NCBI GenBank assembly: GCA_964515075.1
Contig: CAZETE010000004.1
Span: 3,353-67,352, forward strand
Reading direction: 5' to 3'
Source: an uncultured Actinomycetota bacterium
Lineage (GTDB): Bacteria; Actinomycetota; Geothermincolia; Geothermincolales; Geothermincolaceae
Length of the DNA: 64,000 nt
Shown here: positions 10,896 to 61,909 of the stretch, in pieces
How the letters are laid out: each line of letters starts with the position of its first letter
How positions within the stretch are numbered: position 1 is the stretch's first letter
Program-made: the position numbers and the translations under genes
The notes under the pieces: generated by a model
Seen by the model: only the letters and a program-made list of their open reading frames with translations
What the model was told of the DNA's origin: nothing
The model's database searches: none

Positions 10896-13373
<2,478 letters not shown>

Positions 13374-48231: not shown

Positions 48232-51183
48232 CTACTCCCCCGGCCGTTCCGGGAGGAGTTGGGGGTTGAGGATCTCCCGCAGGGTCAGGTCATCGCCGAA
48301 GACCAGCACCGGGATGCGCGCCGCGGGGTCGGCGGCGCCCCAGTCGGCGCAGGGGAAGACGGGGTAGCGCCCCGGGGCGGAGGGGCGGGCGGCCACGGAA
48401 CCGCTCACCAGGTCGACGCGCAGGCGGGCCAGCGCGGCGGGCAGGCAGAGGAACGCCGCCCCGCGGCTGTAGTAGCCGAGGGACTGGTCCATATAGCGGT
48501 TGCACTCGTAGGCGCCGCGCCGCGGCCCCTCGCGGGGGGGCTGCTCGCGGTAGAAGACGCTGTCCCAGAAGCCGCCGTTCATGTTGCAGGCCCACCAGTG
48601 CTCCAGGCCCCAGTAGCCCTCCAGCCGCCCGGCCTGCCCCTCCGGCCACCCCTCCGCCTCCAGGTAGAAGCCGAGGGCGTCGCGCCAGGCGTTCTGCGAC
48701 ATCCACTGGCAGTCGTCCCCGCCGCTGGTGTGCACGCATCCGAACTCGCGCCGCGTGGCCCGGTCCGCGGTGACCAGGTCCAGGCGCATGCGCTCCAGGT
48801 TGTCCGGCTCCAGCCCGGTCTGCCCCCCCGAGGCCAGCAGCCACAGCAGGCCGTTGGCCGGGTAGATGGAGCAGGCGTCCCGCTCGCAGGGCTGGGCGCC
48901 GGGGTCGCTGGAGACGGCGAAGTGGGCGCCCCGCCACATCGCCTCCCGCAAGGTCGCGTTGACCAGCTGCAGCCGCTCCTCGCAGGCGGCGATGAAGTCC
49001 TCGGGCCGCGCCTCCTGGGCCCCGGCCATGTCCGCCGCCGCCCGCACCGCCGCGGCCGCCTTCACCCCCAGGTAGGTCTGGTTGCGCCCGCTGATGAAGA
49101 AGAGGCGGGCCTGGTCGATGCTGTTGTCCGCGTTGACGTCGGGCAGGCCGTCTCCATCGGTGTCGCAGGAGAGGATGTACTCGGCGTAGCCCCGGACGCG
49201 GGGGAACAGCTCCCGCACCAGGGCGGTGCCGCCGGCCTGTTTCCAGTAAGCGTAGAGCAGCAGGATGAAGTCGGCGTTCTCCTCCACCTCCATGCCGAAC
49301 ATGTCGTAGGTCATGCCGATGATGCGGTTGTCCGTGCCGATGTCGTGGGACAGATAGGCGCCGATGCCGTCCTCCCGCTCGAAGAGCGTCCACTGGCGCA
49401 GCTGCCTCTCGAGCAGGTCCGGCCAGAAACTCAGGAAGAACCAGGCGCTGTTGTACTCCACGTCGATGGTGGACATGAAGTAGAAGGGCGGCCCCTCCCA
49501 GGCGGCGAACCATTCCCGGCCGTCCGGGTCGCTGACCCACCAGGCGTTGACGATGTAGTTCTGCAGGCCCAGGGCGGCCAGGCCCTTCCCCGCGGGGGTC
49601 ATGCCGCTGAGGCAGGGCTCGGAGAGCACCCCGTCGAAGAAGGCCGTCCTGGCCTCGATGTCCGCCCGCTCCGGCCCCAGCGCGTAGTCCAGCACCGCCT
49701 GAAGCGAGGTGAGGCCGGGGCCGTCGGGGCGGTTGTAGGCGAAGCTGAAGTCCCGCTCGCCCTCGACCTCCATCACCCCGTCCGGCGAGTGCGCGGCCAG
49801 CACCACGGTGCGCCGGGCCGACCCGCCGGGCGCCAGCCTGAAGCCCCAGGAGAAGCCGGAGTGGCCCCGCGGCCGCCAGGTGAAGGCCGCGTGATCGCAG
49901 GCGAGGGGGTAGCCTGCGGGGCCGGGCCAGATCCACGACGAATCCTCCACTTCCCGGTAATGCCAGTCGACGCCGGAAGCGTCGTCCAGGGCCACCGCCT
50001 CCTCGAAGCGGTACGCCGCGCCGGGGCATCCCTCGCCGGCGTAACTGCCGTCGGCGAAGTTGTAACGCTCGGAGAAGCGGTAGCCGGCCGCGCCCCCCTC
50101 GAGGGGGCGGGGCCTCTCCGCCTCCGACACGTAGCGGTGCGGCCGGGCGAAGAGGAACTCGCCCTCCTGCGGGGCCCCGGTGGGGTTGTCCAGCTCGACG
50201 TCCATGTAGAAGAAGGGGGCGCCGCTCAGCTTGAAGTCCTGCGGGTAGAAGGGCGCGGTCAGGGTGACGGTCGCCGCGAAGGGCAGCGAGGGGTCGCTGC
50301 AGCGGTAGGACACGCCGGTAATGGTCATCTCCTGGTGCATGCCGGAAAAGACGGGGTAGCGGTCGGTGAAGGGGAGGCAGCGCGCCTCCCCGCCGGGCGA
50401 GCGGAAGGCCAGCACCATCTCGGAGAGGTCGTCCGACCAGGTGCCGAGGGGGGACTGGCGCCAGCCCAGCAGCTGCGGCACCGGGTTGAGGCAGAAGCGC
50501 GAGCCGAAGCGCCCCAGCACCACCTCCGAGAGGTCCTGCCCTTCGCCGTTGGCGTAGCGGAGGGGCATGGGCCGGGGCACCCAGTGGCGGCTCTCCATCC
50601 CGTTGAACTCCAGCAGGGAGCGGCCCTGCGCCACCAGGCGCACGTAGCTGACGGTGGCCTCCCCCGCCTCGGCCTTGAAGGCGATGTCGACGCGGCCGCC
50701 CGGGGCGCGCACCCCCCGGGCGCAGGCCTCCCAGGGCACCCCGGCGCCCGCCCCGGCCGCCAGGTCGATGCCGGTCAGCTCGGGCAGGGGGACGCCGTCG
50801 GCGTAGACGGTGAAGACCCGCTCGCCCGGCGCGCGGCCCTGCCACTCCAGGCAGGAGACCTCGAGGTCGAAGACATCCCGGCGCAGGCCGCTGATGGAGT
50901 AGCAGAACTCCTTGCCCAGCCGGGCCTGGGCGAAGCGGTTGGCGTAATGGTCCAGCCCGTTGATGCCTAAAAAGCCGGGCGTGTCCAGCACCTTGCCGTA
51001 GGAGCCGCCGCCCAGCTCAACCACCAGGCGGCCGTCCGCCCCGCCGGGGGGGTGCGCCGGCCGGCGGGCCGGTGGCCCTCCCGTCTCCTTGGCGGCGGGG
51101 ACGAAGAGGCAGCAGGCCGCCAGGCCCAGCACCAGCAGCCCTGCCGCCGCCGCCGCCAGCAGGCTCATCCGCTTGTCGCTCAT
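48232..51183 (-). CDS. large secreted protein: N-terminal malectin-like carbohydrate-binding domain plus (alpha/alpha)6-barrel glycoside-hydrolase-like domain
   Basis: A signal peptide (LLVLGLAAC), a malectin-like segment (..FTVYADGVPLPELTGIDLAAGAGAG..) and a C-terminal region with six-hairpin-glycosidase-like sequence (..FAAWEGPPFYFMSTIDVEYNSAWFFLSFWPDLL..). I am unsure of the family assignment. Confidence 0.45.
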   Translation of the reverse strand: MSDKRMSLLAAAAAGLLVLGLAACCLFVPAAKETGGPPARRPAHPPGGADGRLVVELGGGSYGKVLDTPGFLGINGLDHYANRFAQARLGKEFCYSISGLRRDVFDLEVSCLEWQGRAPGERVFTVYADGVPLPELTGIDLAAGAGAGVPWEACARGVRAPGGRVDIAFKAEAGEATVSYVRLVAQGRSLLEFNGMESRHWVPRPMPLRYANGEGQDLSEVVLGRFGSRFCLNPVPQLLGWRQSPLGTWSDDLSEMVLAFRSPGGEARCLPFTDRYPVFSGMHQEMTITGVSYRCSDPSLPFAATVTLTAPFYPQDFKLSGAPFFYMDVELDNPTGAPQEGEFLFARPHRYVSEAERPRPLEGGAAGYRFSERYNFADGSYAGEGCPGAAYRFEEAVALDDASGVDWHYREVEDSSWIWPGPAGYPLACDHAAFTWRPRGHSGFSWGFRLAPGGSARRTVVLAAHSPDGVMEVEGERDFSFAYNRPDGPGLTSLQAVLDYALGPERADIEARTAFFDGVLSEPCLSGMTPAGKGLAALGLQNYIVNAWWVSDPDGREWFAAWEGPPFYFMSTIDVEYNSAWFFLSFWPDLLERQLRQWTLFEREDGIGAYLSHDIGTDNRIIGMTYDMFGMEVEENADFILLLYAYWKQAGGTALVRELFPRVRGYAEYILSCDTDGDGLPDVNADNSIDQARLFFISGRNQTYLGVKAAAAVRAAADMAGAQEARPEDFIAACEERLQLVNATLREAMWRGAHFAVSSDPGAQPCERDACSIYPANGLLWLLASGGQTGLEPDNLERMRLDLVTADRATRREFGCVHTSGGDDCQWMSQNAWRDALGFYLEAEGWPEGQAGRLEGYWGLEHWWACNMNGGFWDSVFYREQPPREGPRRGAYECNRYMDQSLGYYSRGAAFLCLPAALARLRVDLVSGSVAARPSAPGRYPVFPCADWGAADPAARIPVLVFGDDLTLREILNPQLLPERPGE

Positions 51184-51243: not shown

Positions 51244-52803
51244 TCAGGCGTCGGCCGGGTAGAAGAAGAGCCCCACGGTGCCGGGGCCGGTGTGCGAGCC
51301 GATGACCGGGCCGGTCTCGTTGACGAGGATGCTTCCGGCCTCGCAGCCGAACGCCTCGGCCACCAGCTCCTTCAGGGCCTGGCCGGCCCGCTCGTCGGAG
51401 ACGTGGGTGACGCCCAGCACCGGCCGGCGGCCGCCCAGGTCCTCCTTGGCCAGCTCGACGATGCGCGCCACCGCCTTCTGGGTGCCCCGGGCCTTCTCCT
51501 TGGCGTCGATGGTACCGTGGATGGTCAGGATGGGCTTGACCTTGAGCACGCCGCCCAGGAAGGCCTGCGCCCCCCCGATGCGCCCCCCCTTGCGCAGGTA
51601 CTCCAGGGTGTCCACGGCGAAGTAGACCTTCGACCCGTCGACGACGGCCCGGAGCCGCTCCACGACGGCGTCGAGGTCCGCGCCGTCCCGGATCATCCCG
51701 AGGGCCTCCTCGATGAGCATGTAGATGCCCATGGAGGTGGACATGGAGTCCACCACCTCGATGCGGGTGCCCGCCATCTCGGCGGCGGCGGAGCGCGCCG
51801 ACTCCATGGTGCCGCTGATCCCCCCGGAGATGTGGATGGAGAGGATCTGCTCGTACCTGCCGGCCATCTCCTTGTACGCCTCCGAGAACTCGCCCACGCT
51901 GGGCTGGGAGGTGGTGGGAAACCCGTCGAAGGCCTTGAGTTTTGAGAAGAACTCCTCGTGCGTGAGGTCGACTCCCTCGCAGAAGGACTCGTCCGCGAAG
52001 ATGACCTTCAGCGGGACCACCTTGATATCGCGCTCGCGCACGTAATCCTCGTCCAGGTACGCGGTGCTGTCGGTCACTATGCCAATTTTCCCCGCCAATT
52101 CGCACTCCCCTTTCCTTGGTCCTCGCCTCTCCTCCATCAGGGAACAGGCCGCGCGCGCGGCCATCTGTTCGGCCTCCTTCTTGCTGCGCCCCTCTCCCTG
52201 CCCCGCCTTCTCCCCTCCCAGCCACACCTCGGCGTGGAAGAGCTTAGCGTGGTCCGGGCCCTCGCCCCAGGCGCGGTAGGCGGGCAGCACGCCGCGGGCC
52301 TTGACGGACCACTCCTGCAGCCGGGTCTTGTAGTCGGAGCGCGGGCCCCGGCTCGCCGCCTCCCGCATGCGCTCCCCCAGGACCCTCTCCACCAGCCTGC
52401 CGGCCTCCTCCAGGCCCTTGTCCAGGTAGACCGCCCCGATGAGGGCCTCCAGGGCGTCGGCCAGGACTGATTCCTTGCCCCGGGCGCCGTCCGACTCCGC
52501 CGACGGGCTGAGCAGTATGTGCTCCCCCAGGCCCGCCTCGCCCGCCGCCCGCGCCAGGGCCGCGTCGCTGACCAGCCAGGCCCGGGCCTTGGTGAGGTCG
52601 CCTTCCGCGGCCTCCGGGTCGCTGCGGTAGAGGTAGTCGGTGACCACCATCCCGAGCACCGCGTCGCCGAGGAACTCCAGCCGCTCGAAGGAGCCGGCGG
52701 CCCCGCCTCCCTGCCAGTGGGCGCGCGAGCGGTGGGTCAGGGCCAGCTCCAGCAGCCCCTTGTCGCGGAAGTCCAGCCCCAGGGATGCCTCGAGGTCCCC
52801 CAT
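51244..52803 (-). CDS. rnc: ribonuclease III fused in-frame to a DegV/FakB fatty-acid-binding domain
   Basis: The first 234 aa form a complete RNase III (..ERLEFLGDAVLG.., dsRBD ..KKEAEQMAARAACSLMEE). With no stop codon, a complete DegV follows (..KIGIVTDSTAYLDEDYVRERDIKVVPL....VGLFFYPADA). The internal sequence GGGGAG-N6-TTG at about 52096 could also allow separate DegV initiation. Confidence 0.75.
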   Translation of the reverse strand: MGDLEASLGLDFRDKGLLELALTHRSRAHWQGGGAAGSFERLEFLGDAVLGMVVTDYLYRSDPEAAEGDLTKARAWLVSDAALARAAGEAGLGEHILLSPSAESDGARGKESVLADALEALIGAVYLDKGLEEAGRLVERVLGERMREAASRGPRSDYKTRLQEWSVKARGVLPAYRAWGEGPDHAKLFHAEVWLGGEKAGQGEGRSKKEAEQMAARAACSLMEERRGPRKGECELAGKIGIVTDSTAYLDEDYVRERDIKVVPLKVIFADESFCEGVDLTHEEFFSKLKAFDGFPTTSQPSVGEFSEAYKEMAGRYEQILSIHISGGISGTMESARSAAAEMAGTRIEVVDSMSTSMGIYMLIEEALGMIRDGADLDAVVERLRAVVDGSKVYFAVDTLEYLRKGGRIGGAQAFLGGVLKVKPILTIHGTIDAKEKARGTQKAVARIVELAKEDLGGRRPVLGVTHVSDERAGQALKELVAEAFGCEAGSILVNETGPVIGSHTGPGTVGLFFYPADA

Positions 52804-52807
52804 GCGC

Positions 52808-53818
52808 CTACCCCGTCCCGGCGAGCGCCTCGATGCGGCCCGGCAGCCCGCCGGCGGCCGCCTCCGCCGCCACCTTCAGGGCCCCGGCCACGGCCCTGGC
52901 GCGCGAGCTGCCGTGGCCGATGACGCAGACCCCCTTCACCCCCAGCAGCAGCGCCCCGCCCGCCTCCTCGTGGTCCAGCTCCGCCTTGACCCGGGCCAGG
53001 GCGGGCAGCACCGGCTCGAGCGCCTCCCGCTCCAGCCGGCCCAGGGCGGAGGCGAGGGCCCCGGTGATGAAGGCGGCGGTCCCCTCGATGGTCTTCACGG
53101 CCACGTTGCCGGTGAAGCCGTCGGTCACCACCACGTCCACCCCCTTCCCCGCCAGGTCCCGCCCTTCCACGTTCCCCGAGAAGCTCAGCCGCGGGTCCGC
53201 CTCGAGCAGCGCGTAGGCCGCCTTGGCCAGCTCGCTGCCCTTGCCCGCCTCGCTCCCGATGTTGAGCAGGCCCACCCGGGCGTCCTCCCGACCGGTGAGG
53301 ATGCGCCAGTAAGCCGCGCCCATCAGCGCGAACTGCTTAAGGTGCTCGGGCCGGCAGTCGGCGTTGGCCCCCGCGTCCAGCAGGACCTTGGGCGCGTCGG
53401 CCGGCGGCAGCAGCACCGCCACCGCCGGCCGCTTGATGCCCTTGATGCGCCCCCAGGAGAGCAGGGCGGCGGACATGGCCGCCCCGGTGTTGCCGGCGGA
53501 GACCAGCGCGCCGGCCCTCCCCTCGCGCACGCATTCCGCCCCCCGCACCAGCGAGGAGTCCGGGTGGGCCCTCACCGACCAGGCCCCCTCGTCGGCCATG
53601 CCCACGGCCTCGGAAGCCTCTATTATCTCGAAGGGCGCCGCTCCCAGCAGGGCCACCTGTTCCTCGATGGCCTCCCGCATCCCGCTGAGCACCACCTCCA
53701 GGCCCAGCTGCTCGCGGGCCAGGACGGCTCCCGCCACCGTTTCTGAGGGAGCGTGATCGCCGCCCATGGCGTCCAGGACCACCCGGATGCCGGCGACTGG
53801 TTCCCGCTTTGCAGCCAT
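52808..53818 (-). CDS. plsX: phosphate acyltransferase
   Basis: A 336 aa ORF (..IRVVLDAMGGDHAP.., ..GFTGNVAVKT..). Confidence 0.9.
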   Translation of the reverse strand: MAAKREPVAGIRVVLDAMGGDHAPSETVAGAVLAREQLGLEVVLSGMREAIEEQVALLGAAPFEIIEASEAVGMADEGAWSVRAHPDSSLVRGAECVREGRAGALVSAGNTGAAMSAALLSWGRIKGIKRPAVAVLLPPADAPKVLLDAGANADCRPEHLKQFALMGAAYWRILTGREDARVGLLNIGSEAGKGSELAKAAYALLEADPRLSFSGNVEGRDLAGKGVDVVVTDGFTGNVAVKTIEGTAAFITGALASALGRLEREALEPVLPALARVKAELDHEEAGGALLLGVKGVCVIGHGSSRARAVAGALKVAAEAAAGGLPGRIEALAGTG

Positions 53819-53828
53819 GGAAGGGGCG

Positions 53829-54008
53829 TTAGTCTACCTTGGCGACCTCTCTTCCCGCGTAATATCCGCAGGAAGGGCAGGCGTGGTGGGGCAGTTTGGG
53901 CGCGTGGCACTGGGGGCATGCGGACTTGGTGGGCACCCGGCCGGCCTTCCACACCGACTTGCGCGAGGCCGCTCGCGAGCGGGACTTCTTCCTCTTGGGC
54001 ACTGCCAT
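53829..54008 (-). CDS. rpmF: 50S ribosomal protein L32
   Basis: MAVPKRKKSRSRAASRKSVWKA... with the CxxC...CxxC zinc ribbon. The start is chosen inside a longer ORF. Confidence 0.85.
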   Translation of the reverse strand: MAVPKRKKSRSRAASRKSVWKAGRVPTKSACPQCHAPKLPHHACPSCGYYAGREVAKVD

Positions 54009-54054
54009 ATCTTGCCACTCCTCCAATAGAATTAAAACCAAAGTCTGAGTATAG

Positions 54055-54627
54055 TTACTCTTCACCCTCCCGGTCAAGCCACTGCCTCAGCTTCTCGAGG
54101 CGCGGGTCGGTCCGCTCCTCCCGGCAGCCGCACTCCCCCCGATTGAGGTCGGCCCCGCAGGAAGGGCACACGCCGCGGCAGTCGGGACGGCAGAGCCGCC
54201 GGATGGGCAGGGAGAGGATGACCTGGTCGTTGACCATCTCGTTCAGCTCCAGCTCCTCCCCCTCCAGCCGGTAACTCTCCTCCCGCGGCACCTCCGCCTC
54301 CTCCCGCCCTTCCGGGGAGAGGAGGGGCAGGGTGGTGCGGGTGAAGAACTCGTCGACCTCCGCGGAGAAGGGGAAGTCCACCGGCGCGGCGCAGCGCGTG
54401 CACTCAAGGGGCAGGGTGCCGGCGATGGTCCCGGTGACGCGGATGCCGCCCGGCGAGCTCTCCAGCAGCAGGTCGAGGTCGGCCGGGCTGCCGGCCGGCG
54501 ACTCGCGCAGGCCCTCCTCCCCCATCGCCAGCAGGAGCCTTACGCGCAGGCGCTCGCGGGCGTAGGTGTCGCGCAGCAGCCTCCCCACGCCTATCTTCAG
54601 TTCCTTGCTGTCCAGATGACCGCCCAT
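54055..54627 (-). CDS. yceD: YceD/DUF177 family protein (23S rRNA accumulation protein)
   Basis: C-terminal Cys cluster (CRPDCRGVCPSCGADLNRGECGC). It occupies the conserved position upstream of rpmF-plsX. Confidence 0.78.
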   Translation of the reverse strand: MGGHLDSKELKIGVGRLLRDTYARERLRVRLLLAMGEEGLRESPAGSPADLDLLLESSPGGIRVTGTIAGTLPLECTRCAAPVDFPFSAEVDEFFTRTTLPLLSPEGREEAEVPREESYRLEGEELELNEMVNDQVILSLPIRRLCRPDCRGVCPSCGADLNRGECGCREERTDPRLEKLRQWLDREGEE

Positions 54628-60304: not shown

Positions 60305-61909
60305 CTACTCGGCCCCGATGATGTAGTGGTAGACGGGCTGGCCGCCGTCGATGACCTCGACCTCCAGGCCGCTCTCCTCGATGGAGCCCAGGATGCTCGC
60401 GCGGCTGGCCTCGTCGGCATCCTCCCCGACGATGAAGGTGATCAGGTCGGTCCCGTCGCCGGCCATCTCCCGGATGAGCTCGGTGGTGGTGGCCTCCAGC
60501 TCCTTGCCCGCCGAGACGATCCGCTTCCCGTACAGCCCGATGAAGTCGCCCTTTTTGATCTTGCCCGCCCCGGACCGCGAGTCGCGCACCGCCCGGGTCA
60601 CCGCGCCGGTGCGGATGGAGGAACAGGCCCTGGTCATGTTCTCCAGGTTGCCCTCCCAGGACTCCCGGGGATCGAAGGAGACCAGCGCGGTGAACCCCTC
60701 GGTGATGGCCTTGGCCGGTATCACTCCCACCTTCTTCGCGGTGAGCTCCCGGGTCTGTTCGGCCGCGGGGATGATGTTCTTGTTGTTGGGCAGGACCAGG
60801 ACCTCCTGCTGGGGCACGCTCTCTATGGCCTTGAGCATCTCGGCGGTGGAGGGGTTCATGCTCTGGCCCCCGTTGACGATGACGTCCACGCCCATGTCCT
60901 TGAGGATGCCCTTGATGCCCTCGCCGTTGGCGATGGCCACCAGGCCGATGCGCCTGCCGTTGAGGTCGGCCCGCCCGGCGGCGACCTCCTCCGCCTGCTC
61001 CCGGAGGTCGTCTATCTCCACCTGGGAGAGGCGCCCGACGGCGCTGGCCTCCTCGACGACGCGGCCGAGCTGGTCGGTGTGCACGTGCACCCGGTAAAGC
61101 TTCTCGCCGCCCACCACCAGGACGGAGGTGCCCAGTTCGCGCAGGCGCTCGCGGAAGGCGTCCACCCTGGCGTCCCGGCACTTGAGCATGAACTGGATCT
61201 CGTAGCGCCCCTCCTCTTCCTCGGCGGCCGGGGCGGCCGCGCCGGCCCCGGGGGCCTCGCGGTCGGCCGGGTATCTCTTGAGCTCCTCGCCGGTCAGGCC
61301 GGCGTAGATGCCCTCCAGGAAGACCACCAGCCCCCGTCCGCCCGCGTCCACCACCCCCGCTTCCTTGAGGACGGGCAGGAGCTCGGGGGTGAGCTCCAGC
61401 GAGGCGCGGGAGGCCGCGAGCACCCCGTCCAGCCACTCCTCCACGCTGCCCGCCTGCCGGGCCAGGGCCCGGCCCTGCTCGGACGCCTCCCGCACCACCG
61501 TGAGGATGGTGCCTTCCACCGGCTTCATCACCGCCCGGTAGGCGACCTCGGAGCCGCGGGCCAGGGCCTCGGACAGCTCGGCCACACCGGCGGTCTCGCA
61601 CTCCGCAAGGACCTCGCAGAGGCCCTTGAGGATCTGGGAGAGCACCACGCCGGAGTTGCCGCGCGCGCCCATCAGGGAGCCGCGGGAGATGGCGCGGCAC
61701 AGCGGGCCCATCCCGGCGGCCGGGGCCTTGCCCATCTCCTCCACCACCGCCTGCACGGTGAGGTACATGTTGGTCCCGGTGTCCCCGTCCGGCACCGGGA
61801 AGACGTTGAGCGCGTTGACCTCGTCGCGGTGCAGTTCCAGCGCGTCCAGCGCCTTCCTGACCAGGCACTCCAGGTCCCGCGCTCCGATCCGTTCCGTCAA
61901 GGGCCACAC
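60305..61909 (-). CDS. fakA: DAK2-domain protein YloV / fatty acid kinase FakA
   Basis: An N-terminal DAK2 domain (..NVFPVPDGDTGTNM..), a middle domain and a C-terminal DegV-interaction-like domain. It sits in the conserved yloU-yloV-recG position. Confidence 0.75.
   Translation of the reverse strand: MWPLTERIGARDLECLVRKALDALELHRDEVNALNVFPVPDGDTGTNMYLTVQAVVEEMGKAPAAGMGPLCRAISRGSLMGARGNSGVVLSQILKGLCEVLAECETAGVAELSEALARGSEVAYRAVMKPVEGTILTVVREASEQGRALARQAGSVEEWLDGVLAASRASLELTPELLPVLKEAGVVDAGGRGLVVFLEGIYAGLTGEELKRYPADREAPGAGAAAPAAEEEEGRYEIQFMLKCRDARVDAFRERLRELGTSVLVVGGEKLYRVHVHTDQLGRVVEEASAVGRLSQVEIDDLREQAEEVAAGRADLNGRRIGLVAIANGEGIKGILKDMGVDVIVNGGQSMNPSTAEMLKAIESVPQQEVLVLPNNKNIIPAAEQTRELTAKKVGVIPAKAITEGFTALVSFDPRESWEGNLENMTRACSSIRTGAVTRAVRDSRSGAGKIKKGDFIGLYGKRIVSAGKELEATTTELIREMAGDGTDLITFIVGEDADEASRASILGSIEESGLEVEVIDGGQPVYHYIIGAE

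Follow-up and report, generated by a model that had tools for sequence, protein, structure and literature searches.

A probable one-nucleotide origin for an inherited RNase III-DegV/FakB fusion gene in uncultured Actinomycetota

The rnc::degV open reading frame

The DNA considered here is a stretch of 64,000 nucleotides (the window) from contig CAZETE010000004.1 of GenBank assembly GCA_964515075.1, assigned to an uncultured actinomycetotal bacterium of the Geothermincolaceae. Immediately downstream of plsX on its minus strand lies a single open reading frame (ORF), rnc::degV, of 519 codons, which encodes a complete ribonuclease III (RNase III: a catalytic domain and a double-stranded RNA-binding domain, dsRBD) and, with no stop between them, a complete DegV/FakB fatty-acid-binding protein (Table 1). 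An initial annotation made from the letters alone had read the ORF in this way, and Pfam and NCBIfam matches bear it out. The NCBIfam model TIGR02191 (RNaseIII) scores 228.7 bits (cut-off 166.25) over residues 5-221, using profile positions 2-217 of 219, and Pfam Ribonuclease_3 likewise matches this half; TIGR00762 (DegV) scores 312 bits (cut-off 99.7) over residues 240-515, positions 1-276 of 276. Two complete domains in one frame at such E-values cannot be a product of chance, and both are ordinary members of their own families.

The N-terminal 226 residues match Mycobacterium tuberculosis RNase III (2A11) over its full length (5.8e-47). Together with the family hidden Markov model (HMM), the ERLEFLGD signature, all the acidic catalytic residues and the single C-terminal dsRBD, features shared with 2A11 and Escherichia coli Rnc, identify a class 1 bacterial RNase III; the difference is that the fusion has a C-terminal DegV domain of 284 residues rather than the usual ...KGE end. 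The DegV half in turn matches Thermus thermophilus 2DT8 over its full length (1.4e-55). Its family HMM match, its Thr/Ser/His/Arg carboxylate network and FakA-interface arginine, kept as in Staphylococcus aureus FakB1 and FakB2, and the presence of fakA in the genome, with plsX also nearby, place it in the DegV/FakB family, from whose other members it differs in being fused behind an RNase III. Against the FakB1 isoform equivalog NF038249 it scores 180.8 bits, below the cut-off of 350, and it is accordingly assigned to the family and not to the FakB1 isoform.

Table 1. Features of the rnc::degV locus and its surroundings (window positions)
Feature	Position	Strand	Remarks
rnc::degV fusion ORF	51244..52803	-	519 codons, ATG to TGA; full-length homologues P0001-P0007 and L009
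RNase III catalytic domain	52381..52764	-	Residues 14-141; Pfam Ribonucleas_3_3, 7.5e-33
dsRNA-binding domain	52141..52332	-	Residues 158-221; Pfam dsrm, 7e-16
Inter-domain linker	52099..52140	-	Residues 222-235; hypervariable except K-G-E-C; predicted disordered
Internal Shine-Dalgarno sequence AAAGGGGAG (putative)	52105..52113	-	Codons K231-G232-E233; read as former RNase III C-terminus and degV ribosome-binding site
Cys234 codon TGC	52102..52104	-	Invariant; read as remnant of ancestral TGA stop after loss of A
Internal start codon (putative)	52096..52098	-	TTG here; aligns with initiator Met of stand-alone DegV
DegV/FakB domain	51256..52089	-	Residues 239-516; Pfam DegV, 1.9e-85, profile positions 1-279 of 280
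plsX	52808..53818	-	Stop 4 nt before rnc ATG; TIGR00182, 302 bits (cut-off 243)
rpmF (L32)	53829..54008	-	59 aa from MAVPKRKK start; homologous loci give a 59-aa product
Promoter-like site TTGACC, 18-nt spacer, TATACT	54048..54077	-	Consensus match alone; upstream of rpmF, within yceD 3' end
yceD	54055..54627	-	Profile match
fakA, kinase partner of FakB	60305..61909	-	Dak2, FakA_M and FakA_C domains

Recurrence and distribution of the fusion

Recurrence was searched for in 5.8 billion proteins, in a genome collection, and in JGI metagenomes by a DNA pattern scan specific to the junction. The protein search added seven clusters of full-length fusions (517-522 amino acids, 63-99% identity; ENA, JGI, NCBI and Logan assemblies), the genome collection a further one in a metagenome-assembled genome (MAG) from Danish soil (L009, 86% identical), and the pattern scan two more (L094, L095). 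At least ten independent assemblies, made in different projects with different assemblers, carry one and the same in-frame junction. The nucleotide sequences of the fusions have diverged (synonymous divergence, dS, 0.5-0.9), and one lineage has a 12-nucleotide in-frame insertion in the linker. All fused loci with enough flanking sequence share the order asp23-fakA-recG-rsmD-coaD-x-(SSF)-yceD-rpmF-plsX-fusion-GH116, and fakA is found in every related locus with enough flanking DNA. The fusion clade belongs to the Actinomycetota, in or near the class Ca. Geothermincolia, to judge by the window's ClpC, which has 82-85% identity with proteins of named Actinomycetota MAGs, Ca. Solincola and Ca. Geothermincolia among them.

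When 1.84 billion representatives at 50% identity were scanned exhaustively with HMMER (list floor 181 bits, which a two-domain protein would exceed), the RNase III plus DegV architecture came back as a single cluster (P0007). Ten multi-stretch candidates for independent RNase III-DegV fusions elsewhere all proved to be tandem RNase III or FakA(N-terminal)-DegV proteins. Proteins of these two kinds indicate that both domains tolerate fusion, and none joins RNase III to DegV. Three of them (P0168, P0211, P0232; 490-605 amino acids) have Dak2 and FakA_M and then, where FakA_C would typically stand, a complete domain that scores as DegV, and may be FakA-FakB-like single-chain kinases; the tandem proteins (P0123, P0164, P0205, and also P0152 and P0171) have two or three RNase III domains per chain, some with two dsRBDs, and resemble a single-chain dimer.

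The RNase III proteins P0058 and P0096, considered as truncated fusions, were rejected as ordinary actinobacterial enzymes whose extension, unlike that of the fusion, is only a low-complexity Pro/Ala-rich tail; such tails, 40-70 residues long and following the dsRBD, are seen in the related actinobacterial proteins P0058, P0096, P0196 and P0260. The stand-alone DegV proteins P0009, P0010 and P0012, considered as the unfused state, are paralogues at unrelated loci. A second degV, a stand-alone paralogue with about 60% identity to the DegV of the fusion, occurs at a different locus (L007:10001-10909 and L091:829-1686, sharing downstream genes for dCMP deaminase, DUF4442, peptidase S9 and DUF389), and L007 comes from the same metagenome as the fusion locus L001; in addition to the fusion, the clade probably encodes free FakB paralogues.

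Public sources name the fusion protein "ribonuclease III" (JGI) or give it no name. A literature search turned up no paper that brings together DegV, ribonuclease III and fusion; there are four co-mentions of DegV and RNase III, all incidental. With no literature and no other protein cluster found, the initial annotation's surmise that a covalent RNase III-FakB link had not been described holds up: the combination of RNase III, dsRBD and DegV appears to be undescribed.

Junction states and the origin of the fusion

The stand-alone DegV closest to the fused domain (P0008, 63% identical) is encoded in two loci, L089 and L090, on the backbone recG-rsmD-coaD-x-yceD-rpmF-plsX-rnc-degV. Here rnc (246 amino acids) and degV (286 amino acids) are separate genes, parted by a stop codon and 4 nucleotides. 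In L089 the junction reads ...AAG GGG GAA TGA cgaa ATG GGG AAG ATA...: RNase III ends in ...RRKGE and the stop, and degV lies in the +1 frame. All fusion junctions have the form AAR GGG GAR TGY NNN (ATG/GTG/TTG), the window's being AAA GGG GAG TGC GAA TTG. The junctions GGGGAATGAcgaaATG and GGGGARTGCGAANTG are one single-base deletion apart: taking the A from the L089 TGA gives GAA TGC GAA ATG, in which the stop is gone and degV is in frame.

L093, more distantly related, has unfused genes too, but in a different arrangement, rnc overlapping degV by 19 nucleotides out of frame, with a Shine-Dalgarno (SD) sequence GAGAAAGGGGAG inside the rnc tail EKGEPCPPSG (stop); the adjacency of rnc and degV, and the placing of the SD in the rnc tail, are therefore older than the fusion. 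The unfused sister operons share with the fused loci their synteny, the degV SD in the ...KGE tail of rnc and the DegV N-terminus, and differ in yielding two separate proteins. The invariant KGEC block of the fusions is explained in the same terms, because K-G-E would be the old RNase III C-terminus and degV SD, and the Cys codon the remnant of the stop.

In a neighbour-joining tree of the RNase III half the fusions are monophyletic (89% bootstrap) with L089 as their sister (88%). The tree of the DegV half has the same topology with weak support (51% and 42%), and that of PlsX does not settle the position of L089 (28%). The fusions fall into two sub-clades (window/L009/P0002 with L001/L006, and L002/L003/L005) today 60-70% identical to each other; the most parsimonious reading is one fusion event in their ancestor, and the fusion has been conserved since then.

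Function of the two halves

Six acidic residues of the RNase III half (E40, E43, D47, E67, D116, E119) are invariant in eight aligned fusions; mapped by motif, they are presumably the E. coli residues E38, E41, D45, E65, D114 and E117. In the DegV half, alignment to S. aureus FakB1 carries T62, S95, R173, R205 and H270 onto T298, S330, R408, R439 and H504, all invariant, and S171 onto G406, a glycine also found in the T. thermophilus and Bacillus subtilis DegV structures (2DT8 and 3FYS). T62, S95, S171 and H270 belong to the carboxylate network of FakB1 and R173 is the tunnel arginine, and R205, or R202 in SsFakB2, is the arginine at the FakA interface (PMC8892158, PMC10848957). Within the fusion clade the ratio of nonsynonymous to synonymous divergence (dN/dS) lies between 0.15 and 0.34 in the RNase III half and between 0.08 and 0.34 in the DegV half; dN is three to five times higher in the linker. 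Both halves are under purifying selection, and from their sequences both are predicted still to be functional.

An AlphaFold (AF2) model has a confident DegV half (predicted local distance difference test, pLDDT, about 85-95; DegV β1 from residue 240), a dsRBD of the alpha-beta-beta-beta-alpha type with its last helix at residues 208-226, a tether (residues 227-237) with pLDDT below 50, and a less confident RNase III half, for which the alignment is shallow. The fusion may be sterically tolerable to both partners, since FakB has been crystallised with N-terminal tags (the chains in the crystals exceed the native length by 20-35 residues) and long C-terminal tails are found on many RNase III proteins of actinobacteria.

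The internal Shine-Dalgarno sequence and start codon

The initial annotation had pointed to a GGGGAG-N6-TTG in the linker as a possible means of independent DegV translation; the motif is there, and the corresponding SD and start are conserved at nucleotide level in the other fusions. All fusions have the same SD motif, which the unfused sisters L089, L090 and L093 share without change. Around it the linker is scrambled: mean pairwise identity is 17% over residues 222-230, 100% over K-G-E-C and 7% at residue 235, as against 0.66-0.74 (as fractions) in the domains. Codon 236, with which the starts of stand-alone DegV proteins align (P0008, MGKIGIVTDS; P0010, LSKIGIVTDS), varies at its first base only, being TTG in the window and L009, GTG in L001 and L006, and ATG in L002, L003 and L005; TTG is used for 0.7% of the leucines encoded by the window's genes, and GTG for 49-62% of valines. 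All six sequences tabulated by codon, and L009 too, have GGG at codon 232, GGG being 27-37% of Gly codons; codon choice varies freely at the nearby invariant Gly columns 196, 201, 203 and 205. Synonymous changes at K231 and E233 are from purine to purine only, and preserve the SD.

At the level of the mRNA, a 50-nucleotide segment centred on the internal start ranks near the bottom of its gene for predicted structure in seven of seven sequences (percentiles 0.4-17%, median 4.8%), coinciding with a dip in GC content. The internal SD would pair with the anti-SD at -8.1 to -11 kcal/mol, versus -1.5 to -7.0 at annotated starts in the window, but SD energy by itself was rejected as a discriminator, strings of equal strength occurring elsewhere in this GC-rich gene; the argument for an internal start therefore rests on the pattern of conservation. 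All fusions keep SD, spacing and start codon (AARGGGGAR, 6 nucleotides, then ATG, GTG or TTG), the open mRNA structure being common to the seven sequences. Because SD, GGG codon, start codon and structure dip persist in an otherwise scrambled linker, it is likely that translation of a free FakB from the internal start has been retained.

One further observation concerns the codon just after the SD. A single C-to-A change in the Cys234 codon (TGC or TGT) would restore the stop, and is never seen among the fusion sequences.

The operon and its neighbourhood

The gene order yceD-rpmF-plsX-rnc::degV given by the initial annotation for the minus strand agrees with the domain matches, as does its placing of fakA 7.5 kb away, where Dak2, FakA_M and FakA_C were all found; downstream of fakA are recG and then a GGDEF response regulator. 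The promoter-like site in Table 1 has 10 of 12 consensus matches and is the only one in the operon region (one found, 0.0 expected). A promoter scan restricted to sigma-70-type sites gave none inside rnc able to drive degV separately. Rfam had no matches in the window, hence neither an rRNA to help with taxonomy nor a riboswitch near the operon, and tblastn found no second rnc or degV within the 64 kb.

Some features of the surroundings may be recorded. In the mechanical ORF listing rpmF is 82 amino acids long from a TTG, longer than the 59-residue product of its relatives. A GH116-like gene of about 1000 amino acids follows the fusion in every fused locus (window 48232-51183, minus strand; L001:11675-14615); in the unfused loci L089 and L090 a CAP-domain gene comes directly after degV (L089:5997-6662), and in L001 the GH116 gene sits between the fusion and the CAP gene, so that presence of GH116 coincides with the fusion clade. 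Further afield, Firmicutes bacterium UBA5500 (L059:9079-16289) has plsX-degV-(326-nucleotide gap)-rnc-smc, with degV in place of the fab genes between plsX and rnc: the order of degV and rnc is the reverse of that in the actinobacterial clade, and an unfused degV can evidently occupy a plsX...rnc operon. Its rnc consists of two overlapping ORFs (11253-11864 and 11677-12105), suggesting a frameshift.

Discussion

The fusion rnc::degV, then, is genuine and vertically inherited, and probably arose by a one-nucleotide deletion, with both halves kept and the internal start retained. The ancestor would have had a yceD-rpmF-plsX-rnc-degV operon in which rnc and degV were adjacent and translationally coupled at its end, the degV SD lying inside the last rnc codons (...K-G-E-stop). 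Loss of the A from TGA would at one stroke have removed the stop and put degV in frame with rnc, giving a 57-kDa chain of RNase III, dsRBD, a flexible tether of about 13 residues and FakB. If the internal SD and the TTG at 52096-52098 still initiate, the locus would produce both this protein and a free FakB of about 31 kDa, the latter working with FakA and PlsX as usual, while the fused protein could be a working RNase III dimer bearing two FakB modules. The fusion would on this account be tolerated, possibly mildly useful for co-expression, rather than a new catalytic machine.

A parallel for two products exists in E. coli, where in-frame internal starts in infB, clpB and cheA give long and short isoforms. 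As in those genes, an SD and start inside the ORF would yield a full-length and a C-terminal product from one mRNA; here, by contrast, the predicted internal initiation would give as its short product a complete, formerly independent subunit, from what was once that gene's own start.

How do other explanations fare? That this contig alone has lost a stop or frameshift, the organism itself having separate rnc and degV, is hardly credible. The junction is indeed one base from the split state, and the related MAG L009 has what is probably an indel error at another point of the gene, but a one-off lost-stop error is excluded because the same junction occurs in many independent, diverged assemblies with conserved synteny, one of them with its own 12-nucleotide linker insertion. 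The initial annotation had allowed for such a lost-stop artefact: the lost stop survives as a mechanism, in the form of a one-nucleotide deletion in evolution to which the unfused sister loci point, and the artefact falls. Reversal of the polarity, with a fused gene ancestral and the L089/L090 lineage re-split by a one-nucleotide insertion that created TGA, seems very improbable: it is a single step in either direction, and the PlsX and DegV trees leave room for it, but the RNase III tree puts L089 outside the fusions (88-89%), the more distant L093 is likewise unfused with a different, overlapping junction, and separate genes are the universal state elsewhere.

Two alternatives concern function rather than history. 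The internal SD and start could be an unused relic, the 57-kDa fusion being the only product and serving as FakB from this locus; the site lies in the path of ribosomes translating rnc, the gene is rich in SD-like strings, and internal initiation is deduced from sequence. We consider this unlikely, since SD, GGG codon and NTG start persist although the linker is scrambled to 17% identity, the start changes only among ATG, GTG and TTG despite the rarity of TTG as a Leu codon, and conservation extends to the local minimum of mRNA structure. Alternatively, the fusion may have been selected as adaptive, the FakB module regulating or localising RNase III (membrane docking, fatty-acid-dependent RNA processing). 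Consistent with this are the lack of any reversion or restored stop across lineages down to 63% identity, the invariance of Cys234 upstream of the internal start, which has no explanation at nucleotide level, the known cycling of FakB on and off membranes (PMC8892158), and the presence of rnc in lipid and ribosome operons of many bacteria (for example L059). It is nevertheless a doubtful proposition, a little more so than the relic: a chance one-nucleotide deletion between adjacent genes fully accounts for the origin, the architecture is limited to one small clade with no second origin, the tether is predicted to be disordered with no conserved interface, and maintenance of the frame is not statistically significant. 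A specific form of it, in which FakB is a lipid-status or membrane-docking module tying RNA processing by RNase III to fatty-acid availability or the membrane surface, with Cys234 part of the coupling, is somewhat more doubtful again; its targets could be rRNA or the rpmF-plsX operon's own mRNA.

Several points weigh against the reading of an inherited, tolerated fusion with a retained internal start. In L009 (L009:10001-11602; the GTDB representative MAG MFD04716.bin.2.264) the junction is fused, and the DegV half has one extra base at about codon 378, in a variable part, which shifts the frame, with the +1 frame conserved from there as far as the usual stop; an assembly error is the probable cause, a very recent change or decay a possible one. 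The DegV and PlsX trees do not fix the position of the split lineage, so that its re-splitting from a fused ancestor is conceivable. About 5-8% of the gene's 12-mers, both in the window and in several relatives, would pair as strongly as the internal SD. The two products, of 57 and about 31 kDa, are both predictions from sequence. An open linker frame in five independent lineages has P ~0.04-0.17 under a random-sequence neutral null, and frame maintenance was on this account rejected as a sign of selection for the fusion. Finally, the invariant Cys234 lies upstream of the internal start and outside the SD, in a stretch predicted to be disordered; neither the SD nor the modelled structure accounts for it, and it is the only observation to give a hint of selection acting on the fused chain as such.

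On balance a fusion that is tolerated, or mildly useful, fits the evidence better than a new coupling of RNA processing to lipid metabolism. The fusion follows simply from the older adjacency of rnc and degV, and the functional RNase III-FakB link implied by the initial annotation finds no support in it. The case also bears on "Rosetta stone" inference, in which fusion is taken as a sign of interaction: here it reflects operon adjacency, not demonstrated functional interaction. It bears on annotation too, as pipelines label such fusions only "ribonuclease III" or leave them unnamed. Were a fused protein to couple RNA processing to lipid status, it would be a new regulatory link, though this is speculative. 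What the rnc-degV locus does offer is an unusually clean, base-resolved record of the birth of a bacterial multi-domain protein: three junction states (overlap, stop plus 4 nucleotides, fused) stand on one conserved operon backbone, a one-base deletion explains the last of them, and the ancestral ribosome-binding site and start appear to have been kept inside the new ORF.

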